DNA of 16,032 bases from Elusimicrobiota bacterium (lineage in GTDB: Bacteria > Elusimicrobiota > Elusimicrobia > UBA1565 > UBA9628), in contig DAHVNA010000023.1 in the NCBI GenBank assembly GCA_027319565.1, forward strand, positions 1-16,032, read 5' to 3'. How positions within the stretch are numbered: the first letter of the stretch is position 1; the number at the start of each line of letters is the position of its first letter. Shown here one piece after another: positions 2,106 through 12,966 of this stretch. The position numbers were made by a program, and so were the translations under genes. Under the pieces are notes generated by a model. That model ran no database searches and was not told the origin of the DNA. It was given only the letters and a program-made list of their open reading frames with translations.

Positions 2106-3098
2106 ATGGCCTTCGTTATTAAACAACAAGCCGATCCCTTCAAAAAATATTGGTGGTTGATTCTTTTAGTCTTCGGCTTAGTGGGGCTTTGGGTTTGTTA
2201 CCCCGCCTTTAACTCTTCTTCCAACGCCTCCTTAGCCGGGGCCGAATCGGGCCTTCATCCCGTTAATCAAAGTCTTGATTCCACCCAAAATCCCAATGGG
2301 GCGCCCGGAGGGCCGGTGGATCTGTCCATGAAATCCTTTGAGGCCTATGGAAAAAAGGCGCTAGTTGACCCCTTTGCTTCTCTTCTTTTCTCTCCGCCGC
2401 CTTCGGCTCCCGTGGCGAGCGCGTCTTCATCCAAGAAATCGGGAAAGAAATCTTCCCAGTGGGCAGATGCCTTGGCCAGTTTGGCTTCTCAAGGCCAGTC
2501 CCCAGCCGCCGCAACGGCCGCTCCGGTTTTATCCGCCGCATTTCCTAAGGGAAATTTTTCGAGTCTTTCCGGCCTTAGCGGAAGCGAGAGTTCAAACGCA
2601 TTTGCCCCCGCGGGAGCGGGAAATTCTCCCGGCGGGCTCAGCGGTTTTGGGGCGCATACGCCAAAGATTGGAATTAGTTACGCCCATGGAACTTCAGATT
2701 CGGGTCCGTCTCAAGCCAACGGCGGGGGCGCGATGGGAGCTTTAAAAAATACTGCGGCCCAGATGAAATCGGCGGCTTTGGCTCTCAATGGAACGCAGTC
2801 GAGCGCGCTGGCGGCTCAGGCTTTTGACGGTGGAGCGATAGGCCGCGGGCTTATTAATGATCCTAAGGGAATGTCTTCGGCTGTTGGGATCGGGCAAGGG
2901 ACTCCCATGAATCTCAAAGCCAATGATCCCAATTTAAATCAGTCAAAGCCGAATGCGGTTCCGGCGATGCCCCCGATGATGAATCAGCAGCCGAGCATGA
3001 TGCAGCAGATCATGCAGATGCTGATGATGGCGGTTGTCGGTGGGCTTGCCGGCGGAGTTGTCAAGGGAGTTTTGGGGGCCATTGGGTTAGCCGCTTGA
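2106..3098 (+). CDS. Hypothetical Ala/Gly/Ser-rich membrane protein with N-terminal TM and C-terminal glycine-zipper helix
   Basis: KKYWWLILLVFGLVGLWVCYP TM, long low-complexity region, M/Q-rich tract, C-terminal AVVGGLAGGVVKGVLGAIGLAA. A strong promoter lies directly upstream. Confidence 0.8.
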   Translation: MAFVIKQQADPFKKYWWLILLVFGLVGLWVCYPAFNSSSNASLAGAESGLHPVNQSLDSTQNPNGAPGGPVDLSMKSFEAYGKKALVDPFASLLFSPPPSAPVASASSSKKSGKKSSQWADALASLASQGQSPAAATAAPVLSAAFPKGNFSSLSGLSGSESSNAFAPAGAGNSPGGLSGFGAHTPKIGISYAHGTSDSGPSQANGGGAMGALKNTAAQMKSAALALNGTQSSALAAQAFDGGAIGRGLINDPKGMSSAVGIGQGTPMNLKANDPNLNQSKPNAVPAMPPMMNQQPSMMQQIMQMLMMAVVGGLAGGVVKGVLGAIGLAA

Positions 3099-3114
3099 TT
3101 TGAGAGGTATTTTT

Positions 3115-4581
3115 ATGGAAACAAAACAAAACGGTCCTAAAATTAACAAAGGTGAAAAAACGGGACTGGCTGGAATTCTCAGCGCCTTGGGCTGGAACGC
3201 AGCGGAGGGAGAAGCTGTCTCCGGCGGTTTGGGGGGAATGATTGACGCGGCAACCTCTGGCGGGCTTTTGGCGACCAAGGCCGGAATCGTGGGACTTGTT
3301 TTGGCGGGAACGACTGTGGCCGGAGGCGTGGGTTGGCTGGGATACAAAGTTTTGGGCCCCGGGCCTGGAGACAAGGCGCATGCCCATTTTCAGGTTTTTC
3401 AACCAAGGCCGGCGCAATCCGCTTCGGGACAATCTCAAGGTGGCGGCAATTCTCCAAACTCCGGTCAGTCTTCCTTGGGAGATCTTAGTCAGGCCAATCA
3501 AGGGGCGATGGGAGAAGCGGCCGCTTCATTAAACTCTGCTCCGGCTGCTTCCGCGGCCATTGGGGCCGCCCCCAAATCTCCCAATGTCGGTAAGGTTTTT
3601 GGCGGTAAAGCTTCTAAGGTGATGCCGAAATTAGCCGGAGCCGCTAAAATCGGTCAACTTTCTAATCTCAACGCCGCGGGTCCCGCCGCGGCCGCGAAAC
3701 CCGCCGCGGCAAAACCCATGGCGGTGGGGGCGCTGCCCGGTGGCGCTGGAGCGGGAGCTCCGCATGGCGCGGTGGCGGGACGGGGATTTGGCGGATCATC
3801 GGGTGGCGGCGGCGGTGGTTTTCGAGCGATGAACGGCGCTGGAACGGGTTATGGCGGACTTGGTCCCAACAATGTTCCTGGAAATGCTCTTTTCGATGGG
3901 ACTCATGCCTCTGGTATCGGTACCCCTAGCGGTTCTGGGTTGGGAGGAGTAGGAAGCGGAGCTCCCACCCAGTTTCCAGCCGCGTCCAGTTACGGCGGTC
4001 AATTTTCTCCTCAAGGCGGGAACCAAATGCCCTACACTGGCAACGGCACGGACGTGACCCCTTGGCAGGGCGCGATCAATCTGGCGATCATGCTGTCTCT
4101 TTTGGCTGGTGCGCTTATGTATGCGGCTTTCGCATTGTCGAAGTCACAAACTCTGAGCGTTGGTACTCTCAAGGCGATTTTGGCAGTTCTTGGAGTTGTT
4201 ATTGCCGCAGTTGGAGGATTTATCGCCTATCTTGGCAGCCAAATTGCGGGAGGGCAATTCGGCCAATCATTCCAGGGCGGAGCCTTTACCTTGGCGGGAA
4301 CATTTATCGCCATGTCTGGTATGGCTATTGCGGCAGGGGGGGCTGCAGGGGATTTTACTAAGGCAGGTTTTGGTGGTACGACGTCTATGGTTTTCATGGC
4401 TTGTGGGGCCGTGGGATTATTGAGCGCCATGGCGGGCTATCTTGTTCCCGGTCAGCAGTATCCTTCGACGATGTTCTACGGGAACCCTCCTGACTGGACC
4501 AACCCTAATGCCCAGGTCAACCCCAATCCCTATCAATACAATCCCTACTATGGTGGCTCTAGTATGGGAGGTATCCCGTAA
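3115..4581 (+). CDS. Hypothetical Gly/Ala-rich membrane protein with about 4 C-terminal hydrophobic helices
   Basis: ATG 3115 preceded by GAGG (3104-3107) is preferred over TTG 3100. Gly-rich hydrophobic N-terminal segment, low-complexity linker, hydrophobic bundle after VTPWQ, and an N/P/Y-rich tail. Confidence 0.8.
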   Translation: METKQNGPKINKGEKTGLAGILSALGWNAAEGEAVSGGLGGMIDAATSGGLLATKAGIVGLVLAGTTVAGGVGWLGYKVLGPGPGDKAHAHFQVFQPRPAQSASGQSQGGGNSPNSGQSSLGDLSQANQGAMGEAAASLNSAPAASAAIGAAPKSPNVGKVFGGKASKVMPKLAGAAKIGQLSNLNAAGPAAAAKPAAAKPMAVGALPGGAGAGAPHGAVAGRGFGGSSGGGGGGFRAMNGAGTGYGGLGPNNVPGNALFDGTHASGIGTPSGSGLGGVGSGAPTQFPAASSYGGQFSPQGGNQMPYTGNGTDVTPWQGAINLAIMLSLLAGALMYAAFALSKSQTLSVGTLKAILAVLGVVIAAVGGFIAYLGSQIAGGQFGQSFQGGAFTLAGTFIAMSGMAIAAGGAAGDFTKAGFGGTTSMVFMACGAVGLLSAMAGYLVPGQQYPSTMFYGNPPDWTNPNAQVNPNPYQYNPYYGGSSMGGIP

Positions 4582-4607: not shown

Positions 4608-4635
4608 TTGACAAAGTCAGTATTTCTGTTACACT
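4608..4635 (+). promoter_or_regulatory. Sigma70 promoter driving a ~200-nt structured leader
   Basis: TTGACA (4608-4613)-N16-TACACT (4630-4635), with extended -10 TG at 4627-4628. Confidence 0.8.
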
Positions 4636-4710
4636 TCTAAGGACGTATCCCGTATAGTTTATTCGCGGTCGAGGGGGCAAAAAAAACCGCGAGAATTTTC
4701 TCTATGCGGG

Positions 4711-4835
4711 CGATAAAGGCAAACCCGTGCCGAAAGGCACGCGGCTTCCTAGTCTTCGTATAAGACAGGGATTCCGCGCCGTAAGGCGGGGGCGCAAAGC
4801 CGTGACTCCTTTCGAGGAGCGTCAGGCTGCCGAAA
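4711..4835 (+). ncRNA. Cyclic di-GMP-I (GEMM-I)-like riboswitch aptamer with expanded P2
   Basis: Hallmark segments in the right order: CG-ATAAA-GGCAAACC (4711-4725), GGGGCGCAAAGCC (4789-4801), GGCTGCCGAA (4825-4834). Equivalents of Vc2 G20, A47 and C92 are G4718, A4796 and C4830. It lies between a promoter and ATG 4839. Confidence 0.8.
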
Positions 4836-4838
4836 TGA

Positions 4839-6452
4839 ATGGCCCAAGCTAAGGCGAGAGGCCTGTCGTTTTATAGACAGGCGCGTATTGCCGCAGGGAG
4901 AATTCTCTCTGCGGGGTTTCTTGTTTTCTTTTCCGTGCCCGCCTTTTCCCAACTCCTCTCTCAAAGCGCGATTGGAGGTCTCCCTGGGAATTTTCTTCTC
5001 TACGGCGTTGGCGCGAAGGCCTTGGCCATGGGCGGAGCTTTCTACGGCTTGTCTAATGACGCGACCGCGGGCAACTGGAACCCGGCGGGACTCGCGCAGC
5101 TTCAGAGAAAGCAATTGACCTTTATGGACGGAGCCTTGCCCCAGCAGACAAGCCTTGATTATCTCGCCTATGCACAGCCGCTTAAAGGCGGCAGCACTTT
5201 TGCCGGGTCTTTTACGAAACTTTCCGCCGGCGGATTTCAAAATGAGACCGCCACCTACAATCCACAGGGAACTCTGACCGGACTGACCTCCGAGGGCTCT
5301 TTTACCAATGCGCAACAAGCCATTAGCTTTTCCTGGGCGAAAAGCCTGACCAAGACGACCTCTTTTGGCGCGACGGTTCAGGAAGTTTCAAACAGCTTGG
5401 CCGGATACTCGAGCAACACCCAAGCCCTTAACATCGGAATGCTCAAGACCTTCGGGTTCTATCATCTGGGATTAGGCGTTCAAAACGCTTTTTCAAGAAC
5501 CGCCGGCGCGACCAGCGATCAATATCCGGTCATCGTCAGAATGGGAAACGCCATCGAACTTTTCCATGATCGCCTGATTTTGGATATGGATTTAAATAAG
5601 CCCTTGACCCCGGGGCTTGACGTCAATTTCGGCGGAGAGTATCATCTTTCTCAATGGTTCGCGTTTCGCTTTGGTCTCATGGGAATTCCTCAAATTCAGG
5701 AAACCGATTTCGGATTCGGACTGGATTTCCAAACTTTCCAGGTGGATGTTGCCGAGGGAATTGGAAACCTTGGGACCAGCACAAAAATCTCTCTAGGGTT
5801 TAAGTTTGGCGAGAGTAAAACCGCCAACACTAATGCCAAGGTCAAAGCGGTTTTAAAATCCGCCTTTGAGGCTCTTCAGGAGGGAAATTTCACCTTGGCC
5901 CAGGCCCGCTTTAAAGAAGCTCTTTATATCCAGCCGGGAAATAACAAAATTCAGCAAATGATTGATCGTCTTAAAACTGTCACCGATCATGTGCCCCAAG
6001 CGACCGGAGGGGAGGAGTTTCAGACCTTTGTGCGCAAAGGCGCGGTCCTGTTTGTTGACGGCAATGACTTGCGGGGATCCGTCAACGCCTTGAGATACGC
6101 TTACAACAAAAATCCAAAAGACGAGAAATTGCTGCTTCTTTTAAACGCGGTTGAGAAGGCGGCCCATGTCACCGAGCTGACTCGCCGGGTTGGAGGGCCG
6201 GAGCAGTTTACCTGGGTGGATCAAAAAGTGTATGACGCCCGGCAGTCGGTCTATGAGGGACACTATGACGCCGCGATAAGGCGGGCGCAAGACGTTTTGG
6301 ATTTGGAACCCAATAACGTGACCGCCCTTGAGATTCTTGGCAGCGCGTTTTATCTGATGGACCAAAAACAAAAAGCGATCGCGGTCTGGAAAAGAGTTTT
6401 AGAGCTTGATCCGCATAATAAAGAAGTTCGCCAGTTCATGCAGGCAAAATAA
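4839..6452 (+). CDS. PorV/PorQ (UPF0164, FadL-like) family outer-membrane beta-barrel with C-terminal TPR domains
   Basis: Signal-peptide-like FLVFFSVPAFS|Q; family motif GVGAKALAMGGAFYGLSNDATAGNWNPAGLA; amphipathic strands ending ISLGFKFG (~5810); TPRs (AFEALQEGNF...ALYIQPGN; LDLEPNN...AIAVWKRVLELDPHN). Confidence 0.8.
   Translation: MAQAKARGLSFYRQARIAAGRILSAGFLVFFSVPAFSQLLSQSAIGGLPGNFLLYGVGAKALAMGGAFYGLSNDATAGNWNPAGLAQLQRKQLTFMDGALPQQTSLDYLAYAQPLKGGSTFAGSFTKLSAGGFQNETATYNPQGTLTGLTSEGSFTNAQQAISFSWAKSLTKTTSFGATVQEVSNSLAGYSSNTQALNIGMLKTFGFYHLGLGVQNAFSRTAGATSDQYPVIVRMGNAIELFHDRLILDMDLNKPLTPGLDVNFGGEYHLSQWFAFRFGLMGIPQIQETDFGFGLDFQTFQVDVAEGIGNLGTSTKISLGFKFGESKTANTNAKVKAVLKSAFEALQEGNFTLAQARFKEALYIQPGNNKIQQMIDRLKTVTDHVPQATGGEEFQTFVRKGAVLFVDGNDLRGSVNALRYAYNKNPKDEKLLLLLNAVEKAAHVTELTRRVGGPEQFTWVDQKVYDARQSVYEGHYDAAIRRAQDVLDLEPNNVTALEILGSAFYLMDQKQKAIAVWKRVLELDPHNKEVRQFMQAK
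4891..4932 (+). terminator. Terminator-like hairpin inside the first codons of the barrel gene (candidate riboswitch expression platform)
   Basis: CCGCAGGGAG-AATT-CTCTCTGCGG (10 bp, one G-U pair), then GG and TTTCTTGTTTTCTTTT. The U-richness could simply reflect Phe/Leu/Val codons of the signal peptide. Confidence 0.4.
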
Positions 6453-6473
6453 GATATGGAACATTTTAAAGAC

Positions 6474-6502
6474 TTGAAAATGTCATCAGGAGTGCCTACA
6501 CT
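6474..6502 (+). promoter_or_regulatory. Internal sigma70 promoter upstream of the motor genes
   Basis: TTGAAA (6474-6479)-N17-TACACT (6497-6502), the same -10 hexamer as at 2094 and 4630. Confidence 0.7.
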
Positions 6503-6542
6503 TATGTCGAAGGCTCAAGGAACCTATTTTAACGCTTCTCAA

Positions 6543-8507
6543 ATGAAAAAAATCGCCTTTCTCCTGATTTTTATTGTCGCGGCGGTCAAAGCGCTTCAAG
6601 CCGCTCCGCTAGTCGCGCCCGATATTGACCTTCTGAAAGAGCAGAATCAAATTAAGTTGGAGTCGGAAAAAAAGATTCAAGATGAAATTCTCGATCCCAT
6701 CCTGGGGCCGGGAGAAGCCGTCGCTTTTGTCGATGTAGAAATGTCGGTCAAGGTCGAAAGCGAAAGACTCAAGAGAAAGGGGGTGGGCGAGGCGCAGAAA
6801 TACCACCAGAAAAATAACAATGACAACAGCGCCAACATGAACACGAATTTCGTCATGCCCGGAATTCCTAAGCCGACGGCCATTACCGCGGGCGGCCCCA
6901 AAACTCCGCCCAATTCCGCTTCCGCCCAAGCCGCTCAGGAGTCTAAGGGAATTCAACAAGAGACCTATGCCGTAAACCCTATTTTTAAGAAGCTGACGGT
7001 GACCGTCATTCATGACCAAAATGTGCTCAAAGATAAAAATCAGATAGAGATGGTTCGCAGCCGCATTGTCGACGCGATGGGGCAATATCATCTGGCGCCG
7101 GAAAATATTTTCTTTCGGGCCACGCCTTTTGCCCATATCAAGAATGATTGGAAGGAAGATCTTAAAAAACCTTCCGTCTATTTGCCGCTTCTCTACGCTT
7201 TTCTTTTGCTCCTTCTCTTGTCCTTTTTATTCGGGCCGTTGCGGAAGTTTTTAAAAGCTTATATTCAGGCCTTGATGGAAAAGCCGCAATCAGAGGTTGA
7301 GGTGACAGGAGAAGAGGGTGGAGGAGACGATGAAAACGACGGAGAAGATGACAATGCCTTAAGTCAGGAAGGGAAATTGGACATTAATTTTACGAGAAAG
7401 CCCGATGAACCCCCGCCCCCGCCGGTGGATGAGGAGGATGAAATGAAAAAATTCGAGCCGTTCGCTTATATTAACGACGAAAACGTTAAACGCTTGGCCT
7501 ATATGTTTATTCTAAGGAAAGAAGAACCCTGGGTCGTTGCGGTCGTGGCCAGCTATCTCAAGCCCGATTTAGCCCGGCAGCTCTTGACTTCTCTTCCGGT
7601 TGATTTGCAGGCCAAGGTCGCTCTTGAGGCCTTGACTGTCCGGCAAGTGACTCGGGACCAGGTGATCGCGATAGACGGGGATGTGAAGGAAAACGTGGAT
7701 TTTGTGGTCGGCGGAATTGAGCGCTTGGTCGTGTTGCTCGATGAATCTGATTCCGCGACTCGCGCCAATATTTTAAATTACCTCAAAAATGAGAAGCCGC
7801 TGGTTTACGAGGCGGTCAGAAAGCATATTCTTATTTTTGAGGATATCGCTTCTTTCCCGGATCGCGATATGCAGACGATTGTTCGCGAATTAAAGACCGA
7901 TTTGATGGCGCGGGCGCTCACCGGAGCCCCGCCCGAGGTTCTCAATAAGTTTCTCAGCAGCATGTCGGCGGGAGCGGCGAGCTTGCTTAAGGAAACAATG
8001 GAATATACCCAGGGGCTCAACCCAAATCAAATCGAGGATGAGAGAACAAAGGTTATGGATTTAATTAAAGCTCTTGAGAAAGACGGGAAAATCTCCGTTC
8101 GCAAGCAAGGACAACAAGGGTATGACATGGTGGAAGGAATGCAGGAAGAATTAAGCGCCATGGAAAGACGCCAGAAAAGATTTCAAAGTGCCAGACAGAA
8201 AAATCAACCGGAGACTCCCTCTATTTCCGCCGATCCGGCCAAGGCGCAGGCCTACTTTGACGCCGCGGTTTCGCAGTATCAGGCGGGGCAGGCGGACGCC
8301 GCAGTTTCGTATTTTGAAGCGGCTTTAACTCTCAATCCTTCTCTTTGGCAGGCCCATCAATATTTAGGGACGCTGCTCTATCAAAAGGGAGACGTTCAAG
8401 GGGCTCTAGCCCATTATGAAAAGGTTTTGGAAATAAATCCGGACCCCCAACTAAAAGTTTGGGTGGACGGCTTTAAATCACAGGTAGGAGGAAACCTCAA
8501 TGGCTGA
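6543..8507 (+). CDS. FliF C-terminal ring domain (RBM3)-TM-FliG middle/C-terminal-TPR fusion protein
   Basis: Start placed at ATG 6543 (signal peptide MKKIAFLLIFIVAAVKALQA, downstream of the internal promoter). FliF_C-like: ESEKKIQDEILDPILGPGEAVAFVDVEM...FKKLTVTVIHD...RIVDAMG. TM: LPLLYAFLLLLLLSFLFGPL. FliG-M: EEPWVVAVVASYL...LP. FliG-C: GGIERL...IFEDI...DRDMQTIVRE...ALTGA...KFLSSMS...ALEKDGKI. C-terminal TPRs. Confidence 0.85.
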   Translation: MKKIAFLLIFIVAAVKALQAAPLVAPDIDLLKEQNQIKLESEKKIQDEILDPILGPGEAVAFVDVEMSVKVESERLKRKGVGEAQKYHQKNNNDNSANMNTNFVMPGIPKPTAITAGGPKTPPNSASAQAAQESKGIQQETYAVNPIFKKLTVTVIHDQNVLKDKNQIEMVRSRIVDAMGQYHLAPENIFFRATPFAHIKNDWKEDLKKPSVYLPLLYAFLLLLLLSFLFGPLRKFLKAYIQALMEKPQSEVEVTGEEGGGDDENDGEDDNALSQEGKLDINFTRKPDEPPPPPVDEEDEMKKFEPFAYINDENVKRLAYMFILRKEEPWVVAVVASYLKPDLARQLLTSLPVDLQAKVALEALTVRQVTRDQVIAIDGDVKENVDFVVGGIERLVVLLDESDSATRANILNYLKNEKPLVYEAVRKHILIFEDIASFPDRDMQTIVRELKTDLMARALTGAPPEVLNKFLSSMSAGAASLLKETMEYTQGLNPNQIEDERTKVMDLIKALEKDGKISVRKQGQQGYDMVEGMQEELSAMERRQKRFQSARQKNQPETPSISADPAKAQAYFDAAVSQYQAGQADAAVSYFEAALTLNPSLWQAHQYLGTLLYQKGDVQGALAHYEKVLEINPDPQLKVWVDGFKSQVGGNLNG

Positions 8508-11184
8508 AGAAAATAAAGATCCTAGGAATTTCCCGCCGCCTTTGCCGGGCTCCCCCATGGATCCCGGCGCGGCGCAGAGAGACGCTTCTTTTCCGGGCCT
8601 TCCGCCTTTTTTGCCGCCGGATGCATTGCAGCCGTCTAAATCCCTTCCGCCCCTGCCCGGTCTTCCCCCAGCTAAAAATGCGTCTTTGCCTGGGCTTCCG
8701 CCCCTTCCATCTTTGCCGATGGCAAGACCAAACCCAAGCTCTCAGGCCGCTCCTCAAGAACAGGTGAATATCGAGAAAAAAATATCGGAATTAGAGAAAA
8801 AGCTTCAAGAGGAACGAGAAAAGGTCTTGATGGCGCAGCTTAAAAATCAGCAGGAAGCCGTGACTTCCGCCAAGGTCGAATCCTCGCTTAAGGAACTCCA
8901 GGAGAAAATTAGGCGAGAAAGGCGAGATCAGGAAACCGAAGAATCCCGCCTGCGCCTTGAAAATAAACTCCGAGAAATGGAGGCGCGTTTGGCGCAAGAG
9001 AGGGAGACCTGGGTTTCGACCCTTAAATCTCAAATGCAGTCCCGCGAATCTCAGGATAAAGATATCGAGACTCAGTTTGTGGGCCGCATCCAGGAGATGG
9101 AAAAGCGCTGGATGGAAGAGAAAATGCAATGGCAGAAAGCTTTGTCCGCTAAAGAAGAGGAAGCGCGCAATTGGCGGATGGTGGCTGAAAAATTAAGGGC
9201 TTCTGAAATCGAGCTAGGCAAAGTCTTAATTGAGAAAAAATCCACTGAAGAGAAAATCAAGGAAATTGAAAAGAAAAATCTGGAATTGGAAAATAAATAC
9301 GACTTTTCCAACGGCAATCTAGTCGAGAGGGAAAAAGAATTAGCCCAAATTAAAGCCGAGCTTACTCTTGAGCGGGAAACCGCTAAGAGGGAAATCGAGA
9401 ATTTGGGGAAATCGCTTAAGGCCCAAGAGGAAAGAGAAAAGCATCTTCTCGGCGAGATGGAAATTCTCAAAAAAGAATTCCTGCTAAAAACTGAAGCCAT
9501 TGTCCGCGAGAAAGACGACAAAATAAAAGAAATCACTCGCGATAAAGATATCGGCCTTGAACGCCTTCAGGCTTCTTATGAAAAACAGATAGGAGCGATC
9601 AAAAATTCTCTTAAAGAGGCGGAAGAAAAATACGCGGCCAGTCTTGAGAAAATGCGTTTGGAAAAGAAAGCGGAAATTCAATCTCTTAAAGACGGCTTTC
9701 AAAAAGAGTTGGAAGCCGCTTTGAAATCGGAAAAGGAAAAAGAAAAGCGGTTGCAGGATGAAATTTCCCGCCTCAAAGAAGAGATGAGTGAAGTGGAATC
9801 GCGGGCCTCTGAGAAAAAAGAAAAAGCTCTTGGTGATCTTAGAGTGCAATTTCAGGAAAAAATTCTCGATTTGGGCGCTCAATCTAAAAAACGAGAAAAT
9901 GAGCTTGATTTTGAAATTCAGAGGCTAAAAAGCGAGTTGGAGCGTGCCAACGAGCCCTTTCTTCAAGCTAAAGCAGAACATGAAACTGAAATTCAAAAAC
10001 TTAAAGCCGCGTTCCGCATGGAATTAGATGCCGTTCGGTCCGAGAATTCCCTAAGAGAAGCCAAATTGCTGTCTGAAAATTCAGTCTTGAAGACAAATCT
10101 ATCCGCAATTGAGTCCATCAAGGCGCGTATGGAAGAGGAATTATTGCGGTTGCAAAATGAGCGCGATCGGACGATCGAACAATCCGAGGCAAAGTTGCGG
10201 GATGAAATTGCGCGTCTTCAGGCGGGTTTTAGGCTCCAAATAGAAGCCTTTAGAGAATCCAACCAATCTAAAGAAGAGAAGCTTAAGGCCGATATTTCAG
10301 CCCTAAGAAAAGAGAAAGAAGAGATAATTGAGGAATATCAGTCTCAGCACGAGTTAGAATTGAGGAATAGACGTTTGGAAATAGAGACGGAGATTAGACG
10401 CTATCAGGAGAAAGCCGAGCGCGAGAAGAAAGAGGAAGTTGAAAGATCGGTTGCTTCTAGGGTGTTTGCCATCGCTAAAGAGATTGAGGAGAAAACTCGG
10501 AAAGAAAAAGAAAGGGAATTCGGGAGCTTAAGACTCGCGGCGGCGCTGGAACAAAAAAAACATCAAGAGAAAGAAAAGCAATATCAGCAAGACCTCTCTG
10601 AGTATCAGAATCGGCTGCTTGAACTAGAGAAAAAAATAAAAGAGCTTACAGATAGAGAGGATGCCTACAAAAAACAGATGACGGATGTGAAAATTCAAAT
10701 GGCTTCAGCGCAGGCGGAAAAAATAAGCGCGGCTAAAAGAGAAGAACGTCTTCACGCAGCTTTGGCGGTCGTGCGCGGCAAGTGGGAAAAAGAACTAGAG
10801 GCGCAGGTCCTCAAGAAAACGGAAGAAATCCTTGGAATTGAGAAGACTCGTCTTCAAGCGCGGTTCCAACAGGAGGTCGAGCAGAAAGTGGAAGAGATCC
10901 TCCAAAACCGTCGGCTTAAAATGGAACAGGAAATGAGGCTAGAAAAAGACAAAATAGTGGAAGAACAGCGGAGAAAGATAGAAAACGAAATTGCTAGACT
11001 CAAGGAAGAATCTCGGAAGGAACGGGCAGATTTGGAAGAGGCTGTGGCGGCTTATTTGGAAATGAAAAGCAGGAAGGAAGAGGCCGAAAGGCTTTGCTCG
11101 GCTCAGGGGGCACAGCTTGCTTTTGTTAGAAAAGAGGTGGAAAATCTTCAGCAGCAGGTGCGCCAGAGGCTCGCCAAAAAATAG
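8500..11184 (+). CDS. Large Glu/Lys-rich coiled-coil protein with proline-rich N-terminus
   Basis: SD AGGAGG at 8486-8491; 8-nt overlap with the upstream gene; about 800 aa of heptad-like sequence. No Walker motif, TM or signal peptide seen. Confidence 0.88.
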   Translation: MAEENKDPRNFPPPLPGSPMDPGAAQRDASFPGLPPFLPPDALQPSKSLPPLPGLPPAKNASLPGLPPLPSLPMARPNPSSQAAPQEQVNIEKKISELEKKLQEEREKVLMAQLKNQQEAVTSAKVESSLKELQEKIRRERRDQETEESRLRLENKLREMEARLAQERETWVSTLKSQMQSRESQDKDIETQFVGRIQEMEKRWMEEKMQWQKALSAKEEEARNWRMVAEKLRASEIELGKVLIEKKSTEEKIKEIEKKNLELENKYDFSNGNLVEREKELAQIKAELTLERETAKREIENLGKSLKAQEEREKHLLGEMEILKKEFLLKTEAIVREKDDKIKEITRDKDIGLERLQASYEKQIGAIKNSLKEAEEKYAASLEKMRLEKKAEIQSLKDGFQKELEAALKSEKEKEKRLQDEISRLKEEMSEVESRASEKKEKALGDLRVQFQEKILDLGAQSKKRENELDFEIQRLKSELERANEPFLQAKAEHETEIQKLKAAFRMELDAVRSENSLREAKLLSENSVLKTNLSAIESIKARMEEELLRLQNERDRTIEQSEAKLRDEIARLQAGFRLQIEAFRESNQSKEEKLKADISALRKEKEEIIEEYQSQHELELRNRRLEIETEIRRYQEKAEREKKEEVERSVASRVFAIAKEIEEKTRKEKEREFGSLRLAAALEQKKHQEKEKQYQQDLSEYQNRLLELEKKIKELTDREDAYKKQMTDVKIQMASAQAEKISAAKREERLHAALAVVRGKWEKELEAQVLKKTEEILGIEKTRLQARFQQEVEQKVEEILQNRRLKMEQEMRLEKDKIVEEQRRKIENEIARLKEESRKERADLEEAVAAYLEMKSRKEEAERLCSAQGAQLAFVRKEVENLQQQVRQRLAKK
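8530..8718 (+). repeat. Imperfect proline-rich peptide repeats (LPGLPP)
   Basis: FPPPLPGSP, ASFPGLPPFLPP, SLPPLPGLPP, ASLPGLPPLPSLP. Confidence 0.75.
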
Positions 11185-11196
11185 AGGGTTAAATTA

Positions 11197-11427
11197 GTGA
11201 TCTCAGTCCACAAACTTAATGGTCAAGAGGTTTTTATCAATGCGGAATTGATTGAATGTCTTGAGAAAGGACAAGAGACAATCGTTTGTCTTGCCACTGG
11301 CAATCGCTTTTTGGTTAAGGAAAATGTGGAGGAAGTCGTTCAAAAAGTGATTGACTATCGTAAGAAGGTCAATTCGGATTCCAAAGTCGCCAACCCGATC
11401 GCGGGTTTTGAGAGAAAGAATCCTTAA
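11197..11427 (+). CDS. flbD: FlbD/SwrD family protein
   Basis: MI-x-V-x-KLNG-x-x-x-x-INAELIE...ETIV-x-L-x-TG-x-x-FLVKE-x-x-EEV-x-x-KVIDYRKK fits the FlbD consensus; it lies directly upstream of motA as is usual. Confidence 0.92.
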   Translation: MISVHKLNGQEVFINAELIECLEKGQETIVCLATGNRFLVKENVEEVVQKVIDYRKKVNSDSKVANPIAGFERKNP

Positions 11428-11439
11428 GGAGATAAATCG

Positions 11440-12222
11440 ATGGATATAGCGACGGTGCTGGGAATACTGGTTTTCTTGGGGTTGGCCGTCATAACGATTT
11501 TCTTGTCGGAAGGCTGGGTTGGATTTAAGCCTTTCTTTAACATGGAAGCTTTTTTGATGGTCATGGGGGGAACTTTTTGCGCGACCTTGGTCAATTACCC
11601 GCTTTCCCAGGTGGTCGGTCTTGGGCGCATTGTCCGCAAGGTCTTGTTTTCCGCGCCCGAGGATACTCCCGATATCGTGGCGACCTTTGTCAGCCTTTCC
11701 CAGAAGGCTAAAAAAGAAGGATTTTTAGCCCTTCAAGCCGATGTGAAATCCATTCAAAATGATTTCCTGCGCCGGGCGATTCAATTGGTTATTGACGGCG
11801 CGGATCAGGAGTTTATCCGCAATATGTTAGAAACGGAAATCGGCTTTATTCGGGAAAGGCATAAAGTGGGACAGGAAATTTTCAACGCGATGGGGACCTA
11901 TGCGCCGGCTTTTGGAATTATCGGCACGGTTTTGGGAATGATTTTGATGTTGTCGACAATCGAAGATGTCACCCAAGTGCCCCGGCGTATGGCGGTCGCC
12001 TTGGCTTCGGCTTATTTCGGCCTGGGCTCGGGCTATCTTATTTTTCTTCCGATGGGCGGAAAATTGCGCCGGAGATCTGAAGAAGAGCTTCTGGTCAAGG
12101 AAATCATTATCCGCGGAGTTCTCCTCCTTCAAAGCGGCGCGACCCCGAGCGTGGTTGAGGCCAATTTAAAGGCTTATCTTGAGCCGGCCAAACGCGGGGC
12201 CATCAAAACCCAGACTGCTTAA
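11440..12222 (+). CDS. motA: Stator A subunit (MotA/PomA family)
   Basis: MD-x-AT-x-LG, V-x-GGT, AKKEGFLAL, FL-x-x-x-x-QLVIDG, APAFGIIGTVLG, MAVAL, FLPMGGKL; SD AAGGAG at 11426-11431. Confidence 0.95.
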   Translation: MDIATVLGILVFLGLAVITIFLSEGWVGFKPFFNMEAFLMVMGGTFCATLVNYPLSQVVGLGRIVRKVLFSAPEDTPDIVATFVSLSQKAKKEGFLALQADVKSIQNDFLRRAIQLVIDGADQEFIRNMLETEIGFIRERHKVGQEIFNAMGTYAPAFGIIGTVLGMILMLSTIEDVTQVPRRMAVALASAYFGLGSGYLIFLPMGGKLRRRSEEELLVKEIIIRGVLLLQSGATPSVVEANLKAYLEPAKRGAIKTQTA

Positions 12223-12228
12223 ATTTTT

Positions 12229-12966
12229 ATGCCTCTCAAACCGCCAAAAGGTTTTATCGACGAATCCGATCCCAAGGTGGCCCAGATCGGCCATCCGGCC
12301 CCGCCATGGCTGGTCAATTATGCGGACCTCATGACCGAGATTGCCTGTTTTTTTATCATTCTCTATGCCCTTTCGACTTCTTTAAATAAACAGGTTCAAC
12401 AGGCGGTCGAGGATGTTCAAAAGATGGTGAATACCAAACAGATTAGCGGCACGGTTGCAGTCGACCGTGAGGGATTAAAAATTACGCTCAACGAAGAAGG
12501 CCATGTTTCTTTCTTTAAAAGCGGAGAGGCGGACACCACCCCTGCCATGGATGCGATGATCGCCAAACTCGTGCCGACCCTTCGGAAATTGGCCGTAGAT
12601 CACGATATTATCGTTGAAGGCCATACCGACAACCGTAAAATCTCCAACCAATATTTCGACTCGAACTGGGAACTCTCGACGGCGCGGGCGACGATGGTCG
12701 TCAGGCTTCTTAAAAATAAATACGGGCTTCCGCCGAATCGTTTGGGCGCTTTAGGATACGGCCAATATCGCCCGATTGCCTCGAACAATACCCCCGAGGG
12801 CCGCGCGGAAAACCGTCGTGTCGTTTTTTGGGTTAAGAATCTTTCTCCCTCGGACAAGAAAATTGTTTCGGGTTCCGGAGGGGCAAAAGCCAAGGCTTTG
12901 ACTGCCCATCCCCCAGCGTCCGTGCCTGAGAAAAAAGAGAATCAGCCGAATATAAAAGGGCTATAA
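12229..12966 (+). CDS. motB: Stator B subunit (MotB family) with OmpA-like peptidoglycan-binding domain
   Basis: TM WLVNYADLMT...FFIILYA with the conserved Asp; EGHTDN, SNWELSTARA, GYGQYRP, NRRV. Confidence 0.95.
   Translation: MPLKPPKGFIDESDPKVAQIGHPAPPWLVNYADLMTEIACFFIILYALSTSLNKQVQQAVEDVQKMVNTKQISGTVAVDREGLKITLNEEGHVSFFKSGEADTTPAMDAMIAKLVPTLRKLAVDHDIIVEGHTDNRKISNQYFDSNWELSTARATMVVRLLKNKYGLPPNRLGALGYGQYRPIASNNTPEGRAENRRVVFWVKNLSPSDKKIVSGSGGAKAKALTAHPPASVPEKKENQPNIKGL

Follow-up and report, generated by a model that had tools for sequence, protein, structure and literature searches.

A c-di-GMP-I riboswitch of Elusimicrobiota with a two-hairpin insert and a predicted four-way junction in its P2 arm

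The stretch of DNA analysed here (the window, 16,032 nt) carries, upstream of envelope- and motility-type genes, what is probably a GYRA-subtype c-di-GMP-I riboswitch with two hairpins in the 5′ strand of P2, in which the arm and the ligand pocket would be rebuilt by stacking and which would act as an OFF switch. In the architecture itself, a two-hairpin insert that turns P2 into a four-way junction, we have very high confidence. The element probably represents a known sensor in a tolerated form, apparently undescribed so far, and not a new sensor or ligand class. A literature search of titles and the beginnings of abstracts found no description of the variant, and the accessible portion of McCown 2017 (PMC5473149) contains nothing on a junction variant; the supplements of the primary papers and the Rfam full alignment may contain such sequences.

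The aptamer and the junction in its P2 arm

The Rfam covariance model for c-di-GMP-I aptamers (RF01051) matched positions 4708..4834 of the forward strand, on which all features described here lie, with 42.3 bits (cut-off 35, E 1.6e-5), leaving 57 nt of P2 unaligned. A first-pass annotation of this DNA had read the element as a c-di-GMP-I riboswitch in which P2 forms a four-way junction, and had proposed RF01051 as a check on the native sequence; the score above the cut-off and the MFE fold of the arm both bear out its description, and its coordinates for the core positions, the CCC/GGG stem and three helices without unpaired junction bases all agree with the sequence. The ligand-contact positions are intact: G4718 (G20), A4796 (A47), and C4830 (C92), as well as G4712 and G4719. 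By position numbering, we take A4796 to be A47 of the AAA linker. P1 consists of 2 bp (4711-4712 paired with 4831-4832). P3 (4799..4827; pair probability 0.98) belongs to the GYRA subtype: it has a bulge of 2 nt and lacks the 11-nt receptor, a form shared by insert-free orthologues; its UUCG loop is closed by a U-A pair and is not conserved among orthologues. Two insert-free RF01051 copies are present elsewhere in the genome, scoring 65.1 and 60.2 bits.

When the arm is folded, its distal part (4724..4790) forms a junction of four helices without a single unpaired base between them. The proximal stem, CCC/GGG (4724-4726 with 4788-4790), follows from the sequence and the arm fold. It encloses helix A, 5 bp with a GAAA loop at 4732-4735 (4727..4740, from the arm fold and a comparison within the genus), helix B, irregular and of about 15 bp (4741..4777, from the genus alignment), and a 3-bp helix, GCC-GUAA-GGC (4778..4787), whose GYRA loop (4781-4784) is the predicted docking loop, as judged from the correlation between loop and receptor described below. 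The first-pass annotation had P2 replaced by three helices. Rather, helices A and B form a 51-nt insert of two hairpins (4727-4777) within the 5′ strand of a 6-bp P2 stem, and the third helix is the ancestral tip of P2, aligning with the tips of insert-free orthologues. The consensus arm (a 2-bp stem, an internal loop, 6 bp, and a GNRA cap) is found here as 3+3 bp across the junction, with the continuous helix absent.

The insert is not an assembly error, as contigs from runs of three studies cross it (X2, X4, X5). Some DNA contigs have joints that skip 4728-4783, with different letters between and short flanks; these were read as insert-free paralogous switches. As far as the GYRA subtype of RF01051 is covered in the accessible text of PMC1950547, it shares with the window copy the ligand contacts, the 2-bp stem and internal loop, the AAA linker, the 6-bp GYRA-capped arm, the bulged P3, and the 5′ position before envelope or motility genes, whereas in the window two inserted helices divide this stem of 6 bp into 3+3. 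In the same accessible text, Weinberg 2007 describes the arm as 2- and 6-bp stems, with a supplementary table without modular stems, and the supplement includes one borderline Myxococcus match with "extra insertions in P1" (PMC1950547).

Folded alone, 4724-4790 yielded the perfect four-way junction as both MFE and centroid structure (-33.8 kcal/mol, 50% of the ensemble), with a z-score of -3.81 and none of 200 shuffles as low. In a nearest-neighbour model of the whole aptamer, the pair probability of CCC/GGG was just 0.16, and the MFE was a different fold, with imposing the junction costing 0.4 kcal/mol; across 53 examples of two-helix inserts, the median cost was 2.9 kcal/mol. Such alternative folds, equally or more stable in the model, and the lower Rfam score would suit an insert that damages the aptamer and leaves a decaying, mostly misfolded riboswitch. 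We consider this extremely unlikely, as the core nucleotides are all invariant among the four members of the genus, changes are concentrated in helix B and mostly retain its pairing, and other lineages keep both the 6-bp total and the match between loop and receptor. Helix A shows a single U-A to U-G change among these four sequences; in helix B, 90% of the alignment cells are paired, with two pairs changed on both sides and three on one side. The covariation among homologues suggested as a check in the first-pass annotation did not materialize in this four-sequence alignment, where two compensatory pairs were found, not above the shuffle control.

A perfect four-helix junction permits two coaxial stacks, which are not possible in a perfect three-helix one. 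A natural example of a perfect four-helix RNA junction, with helices able to stack in pairs, is that of the hairpin ribozyme; the window shares its four abutting helices and differs in that its junction interrupts a length-critical riboswitch helix, in a register that varies between lineages. In the window, the GCC-GUAA-GGC tip likely stacks on CCC/GGG. We infer that stacking of the proximal on the GUAA-capped distal stem runs through the continuous 3′ strand, and that helix A stacks on helix B. Stacking of the proximal stem and the GUAA tip across the junction would rebuild the normal 6-bp arm and the ligand pocket. Coaxial stacking is favoured by short linkers, according to the accessible part of PMC3258123.

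Gain, loss, and recurrence of the insert

The first gene downstream of the riboswitch was present in 48 of the 61 genomes searched, and RF01051 was found directly upstream of it in 46 of these; in the other two, the gene is cut by a contig end. An ordinary arm of 6 bp and a tetraloop was found in 39 of the 46 orthologous switches, and a two-hairpin insert in seven: four of the window's genus, and those of genomes G014, G016, and G053. An eighth insert at the orthologous locus is that of G327, which belongs to another family and has the register 2+4 (base pairs in the proximal and distal stem, respectively). A clean indel of 60 nt at the junction, between 5′-strand base pairs 3 and 4, sets G014 apart from its congeners G026 and G031 and identifies the GNRA-capped third helix as the ancestral one. 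In a tree built from 44 N-terminal protein fragments, five gains or losses were required, four of them forced by well-supported branches, with bootstrap support not fully settled; since the genera of the window and of G014 are sisters, a gain together with a precise loss would explain the pattern there no less well than two gains. As 39 of the 46 switches do without the insert, it is most likely tolerated rather than needed.

In total, at least 53 distinct two-hairpin inserts with unrelated sequences were found, in the registers 1+5, 2+4, 3+3, and 4+2; examples are related within clades, so that the counts overstate independence. The Elusimicrobiota genomes yielded 29 distinct aptamers with a long P2, every one of which can be read as carrying two inserted helices; 27 have no unpaired junction base, and in 28 the proximal and distal stems total 6 bp. 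Five of the 29 came from a pattern with fixed spacing. The other 24 were found through Rfam, synteny, or a pattern without a spacing constraint, and the total is 6 bp in 23 of these and 7 bp in the remaining one (L046). A loose pattern run across the phylum gave mostly chance matches, from which only riboswitch-like rows were kept; one of these, locus L255, then failed the filter. A metagenome scan gave at least 120 stretches, reduced to 35 candidates by removing ordinary riboswitches and non-riboswitch matches. Among the matches listed, 24 of the 35 candidates are two-helix junctions with at most two unpaired bases, five are looser two-helix arrangements, two parse with one helix, and four remained unparsed. 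Their 6-nt spacing is no evidence for a 6-bp rule, as it was set by the search pattern. Shuffled inserts gave a two-helix layout in 266 of 6000 cases and a perfect one in 31 of 6000.

The most conserved arm of a well-studied riboswitch appears to act as a length ruler, accepting a two-helix graft in several registers if the 6-bp total is kept. The graft point in P2 could give RNA sensors a natural insertion site that can be tested, and it allows four-way-junction stacking to be probed directly within an RNA that binds a ligand. By eye, no single-hairpin insert was seen in the 150 matches inspected (of 155 listed), in which 18-40 nt separate the anchors and which come from 101 genomes of the order; one doubtful single-hairpin row in this order-wide search lacks the riboswitch flanks. 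The one clear three-way case, the metagenomic locus L179, has three unpaired bases, in a search whose pattern disfavoured short inserts. Both the absence of single-hairpin inserts and the unpaired bases of L179 fit the stacking rule for four- and three-helix junctions. Another metagenomic stretch, L177, carries a tandem pair of junction-type c-di-GMP-I aptamers with near-identical inserts (1200-1540).

The window's junction can slide: the registers 2+4, 3+3, and 4+2 are all fully paired, at -46.1 each with coaxial stacking, and always total 6 bp. Such branch migration with an unchanged total, the perfect junctions kept despite great differences in sequence (47 of the 64 rows that were parsed or attempted), and the minimum of four to five gains or losses at the orthologous locus could point to a junction that is itself a selected functional module, with the A/B stack or the sliding register adjusting affinity, the rate of folding, or the binding of proteins, and the insert thereby altering the response of the switch. 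However, one-step migration is feasible in only 17 of the 53 examples, neither the sequence, nor the length (28-60 nt), nor the loops of the insert are conserved, most orthologous switches lack it, and a perfect geometry would be demanded equally by mere tolerance. We regard a selected module as unlikely, and favour an insert that is tolerated.

Twenty junction-bearing loci were scored against RF01051. Six gave no match at the cut-off, and five of the 14 matches were short (74-96 nt) and partial, suggesting that Rfam under-counts junction-type switches in uncultured lineages (6 of the 20 tested loci missed). The first-pass annotation suggested that covariance models may score the variant poorly; this holds for those loci, but the window copy was found by Rfam.

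A possible source of inserts was seen in two other genomes, G327 and G384, which contain 92 and 51 copies, respectively, of CCGCCA...TGGCGG palindromes (controls 8 and 6), labelled REP-like by resemblance, and 27 and 13 abutting CCGCC...GGCGG hairpin pairs (controls 0 and 1). The inserts of G327, G384, and several metagenome loci resemble abutting palindrome pairs, and a ready-made hairpin doublet would yield a four-way junction in one step. A REP-like origin is not supported for the window's insert, which is single-copy in a genome without any doublet; among the genomic inserts, the likeness to palindrome doublets is limited to those of G327 and G384. In these two genomes, REP-like hairpin copies also sit in riboswitch P3 (L094, L092, L264, L265). 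Six metagenome examples precede proteins with similar N-termini, and the two that were scanned match the REP-associated tyrosine transposase family, below the cut-off. At L126, L170, L191, L192, L201, and L204, the sequence after the junction-type riboswitch contains a terminator-like hairpin and a gene similar to those for REP-associated tyrosine transposases.

The docking loop and the ligand

Across the 53 two-helix examples, whose relatives are not independent, a receptor-like P3 motif accompanied 17 of 26 distal GAAA loops and none of 27 distal GYRA loops. GNRA loops on the inserted helices are rare (8 of 53 for helix A and 6 of 53 for helix B). As the receptor tracks the distal loop and the loops of A and B are seldom GNRA, the distal loop behaves as the docking loop. 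According to the accessible text of Weinberg 2007, GAAA loops usually come with the receptor, GYRA loops almost never (PMC1950547). The window, with its GUAA loop and no receptor, conforms to this pairing. The missing CCUAA-type receptor, listed as an oddity in the first-pass annotation, is therefore normal for a GUAA loop, given the GYRA rule and the absence of the motif from all 27 such examples, and the insert-free orthologues share this P3. GUAA loops bind plain helical receptors, as far as the accessible part of PMC7913685 covers them, and the GUAA loop of the window probably docks in the minor groove of P3. The two GNRA loops highlighted in the same annotation are both present in the sequence, but they are not equivalent. 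The GAAA loop of helix A was considered as a docking loop and rejected: GNRA loops are rare at this position, the length of the helix is variable, and P3 lacks a receptor.

According to the accessible text of PMC6140456, G20 and C92 are the bases that recognize the two c-di-GMP guanines, while A20 marks cGAMP switches, and wild-type Vc2 binds cGAMP with a Kd of 10 uM as opposed to a picomolar one for c-di-GMP. The window copy has G at position 20 (G4718), and thereby differs from GEMM-Ib, which has the same scaffold with an A at this position. At the Watson-Crick-reading position, which is Ser or Thr in Hypr cGAMP synthases, each of the genome's four GGDEF matches has Asp; no Hypr-type GGDEF was found among them in this genome, which is 92% complete, in a search that covered GGDEF proteins. 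These findings agree with the first-pass reading of G20, and we predict from them, with high confidence, that the ligand of the window's switch is c-di-GMP. A20 occurs in 6 of 42 orthologous switches (G045, G047, G037, G039, G053, and G038; loci L028, L032, L071, L074, L079, and L080), showing that the locus tolerates A20 in other lineages, which would leave room for 3′,3′-cGAMP, or both dinucleotides, as the ligand. Given the G20 of the window copy, the weak binding of cGAMP by wild-type Vc2 (PMC6140456, in its accessible text), and the lack of a Hypr-type match, we judge this highly unlikely.

The leader, the start codon, and the downstream operon

A sigma-70-type promoter-like site (TTGACA, 16 nt, TACACT; 10 of 12 consensus matches) is located at 4608..4635, and an equivalent site was found upstream in all 43 orthologues examined. 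Counts of 43, like the tree above, omit from the 46 orthologues G041 as well as G017 and G018, in which no match to the frame motif was obtained, and those of 42 also omit G060. With this site upstream and envelope- and motility-type genes downstream, the aptamer occupies a 5′ regulatory position. Further upstream of the promoter-like site are two low-complexity, membrane-anchored ORFs rich in Gly, Ala, and Ser, without Pfam matches (2106-4581).

A leader hairpin, named P0 (4649..4710, -21.8 kcal/mol), lies flush against P1 and has a G-run in its loop (4673-4677); it has no match in Rfam. In 33 of 42 orthologous leaders, a hairpin of -15 kcal/mol or lower ends 0-1 nt before P1, and GGGG is unpaired in 23 of 42. 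The leader hairpin may stack on the 2-bp P1, and it would sequester 4708-4710, which mispair with the C92 region when the aptamer is modelled in isolation. A leader hairpin adjoining P1 was likewise seen at L001 (1317-1574), where one of the two ordinary switches of this genome precedes a large secreted-looking protein without a Pfam match; the other, at L002 (1501-2106), precedes a small secreted-looking protein.

The start codon, ATG at 4839, is 4 nt past the end of the aptamer. In all 43 orthologues, an in-frame ATG or GTG is positioned 1-6 nt past the conserved 3′ end of the aptamer, in all three phases. A Shine-Dalgarno motif (GGAG, GAGG, or AGGA at the usual distance) was found in none of these 43, compared with 174 of 668 long ORFs of the genome, for which start calls are rough. 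In the window's genus, an out-of-frame ATG at 4835 overlaps the start region. The first codons contain a small hairpin (4861..4882), as judged from sequence and fold, followed within the signal-peptide codons by a terminator-like hairpin (4891-4914) and a U-rich tract (together 4891..4932). A terminator-like hairpin of -10 kcal/mol or lower was found in 36 of 43 orthologues, compared with 594 of 1290 GC3-matched synonymous controls (46%) and 3 of 43 in the mature part of the protein; an earlier, cruder scoring gave 81% versus 60%. The arrangement of start codon, missing Shine-Dalgarno site, and terminator-like hairpin keeps its position throughout the order.

A start codon fixed next to the aptamer, together with a terminator-like hairpin in the signal-peptide codons, suggests translational OFF control. 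In this model, the c-di-GMP-bound aptamer would extend over roughly -7 to -40 ahead of the start codon, which lacks a Shine-Dalgarno site; the bound ligand would lock the landing site of the ribosome and turn translation off. On the untranslated message, the terminator-like hairpin in the signal-peptide codons would then form, leading to termination. Vibrio cholerae Vc2, which is a translational OFF switch according to the accessible part of PMC9262584, shares the G20 and C92 equivalents and likely this logic (PMC6140456, PMC9262584, each as far as accessible). The P2 of Vc2 is simple, and its GAAA loop comes with a receptor of its own; the window copy instead shows GUAA and no such receptor, its 2-bp P1 directly adjoins a leader hairpin, and 4 nt separate the aptamer from the start codon. 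Translational-OFF-like cases were also predicted in note 3 of the 2007 supplement, within the accessible text of PMC1950547. On balance, we lean towards translational OFF control of the operon described below.

Alternatively, with the architecture as described, control could be transcriptional or of the ON type, with the ligand preventing hairpin 4891-4914, for example via the leader G-run. Many class-I switches use terminators (PMC1950547, in its accessible text), a terminator-like hairpin recurs among the orthologues, and leaders with a G-run go together with ATG(G)CC starts (28 of 34, versus 1 of 8 without a G-run, that one being a leader missed by the pattern). A pseudoknot pairing the leader G-run with bases that follow the start codon was nevertheless rejected: it showed no covariation, and cognate loop/start pairs did no better than permuted ones, 1847 of 2000 permutations being as low. 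No base-paired antiterminator was found either: in the energy model, hairpin 4891-4914 forms in both the free and the aptamer-forced fold. With the start codon fixed beside the aptamer as well, we consider transcriptional or ON-type control rather unlikely, and retain translational OFF control as the working model. For the full leader, the free MFE breaks the aptamer and lies 7.5-10.4 kcal/mol below the forced fold; in this modelled free state, the start region is not open, and opening it still costs about 13 kcal/mol. Contigs from one RNA run, from a single study and without information on ends, strand, or level, cover 4775-5041, and none cover most of the gene; they carry no weight here as evidence of expression.

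The genes between 4839 and 12966 are tightly spaced on the same strand and form one apparent operon. The first (4839..6452) encodes a protein with a signal peptide, a barrel resembling the PorV/PorQ family (NF033709, 88.7 bits, just under the cut-off of 90), and TPR repeats. It is followed by genes for a protein with FliG middle and C-terminal domains and TPR repeats (6456..8507; PF01706, PF14841), a charged protein of 894 aa that is probably a coiled coil, as judged from its sequence, without Pfam or NCBIfam matches (8500..11184), an FlbD-family protein (11197..11427; PF06289, 72.7 bits), and homologues of MotA (11440-12222) and MotB (12229-12966; for the pair, PF01618, PF13677, and PF00691). 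Matches of the latter two to NCBIfam motor-protein families were below their cut-offs. The remark of the first-pass annotation that such switches often control motility or surface genes fits these PorV-like, FliG-domain, FlbD, and MotAB genes. Searches of the genome (92% complete) gave no match to the flagellin, FlhA, or FliF families. In the accessible part of a preprint (bioRxiv 10.1101/2022.07.08.499144), motAB, flbD, and fliG are reported without flagellar structural genes in most free-living Elusimicrobiota, and their role is called unclear. The operon may encode a non-flagellar, ion-driven envelope motor under c-di-GMP control. For the Elusimicrobiota, c-di-GMP would be tied to a conserved PorV-like/FliG-like/FlbD/MotAB operon in a genome in which no flagellar core gene was found.

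A bolder combination of these elements would make the junction a recurrently acquired, selected plug-in: mobile doublets would land where stacking keeps the 6-bp ruler, sliding would tune the response, and a start codon without a Shine-Dalgarno site would be blocked, exposing the terminator and controlling a flagellum-less MotAB/FliG machine. We consider this scenario unlikely. Near-duplicates of the first gene (98% protein identity) and of a GGDEF gene were observed on the short contigs C80 and C85 of the window's own genome (G000), and are probably strain variants in the assembly.
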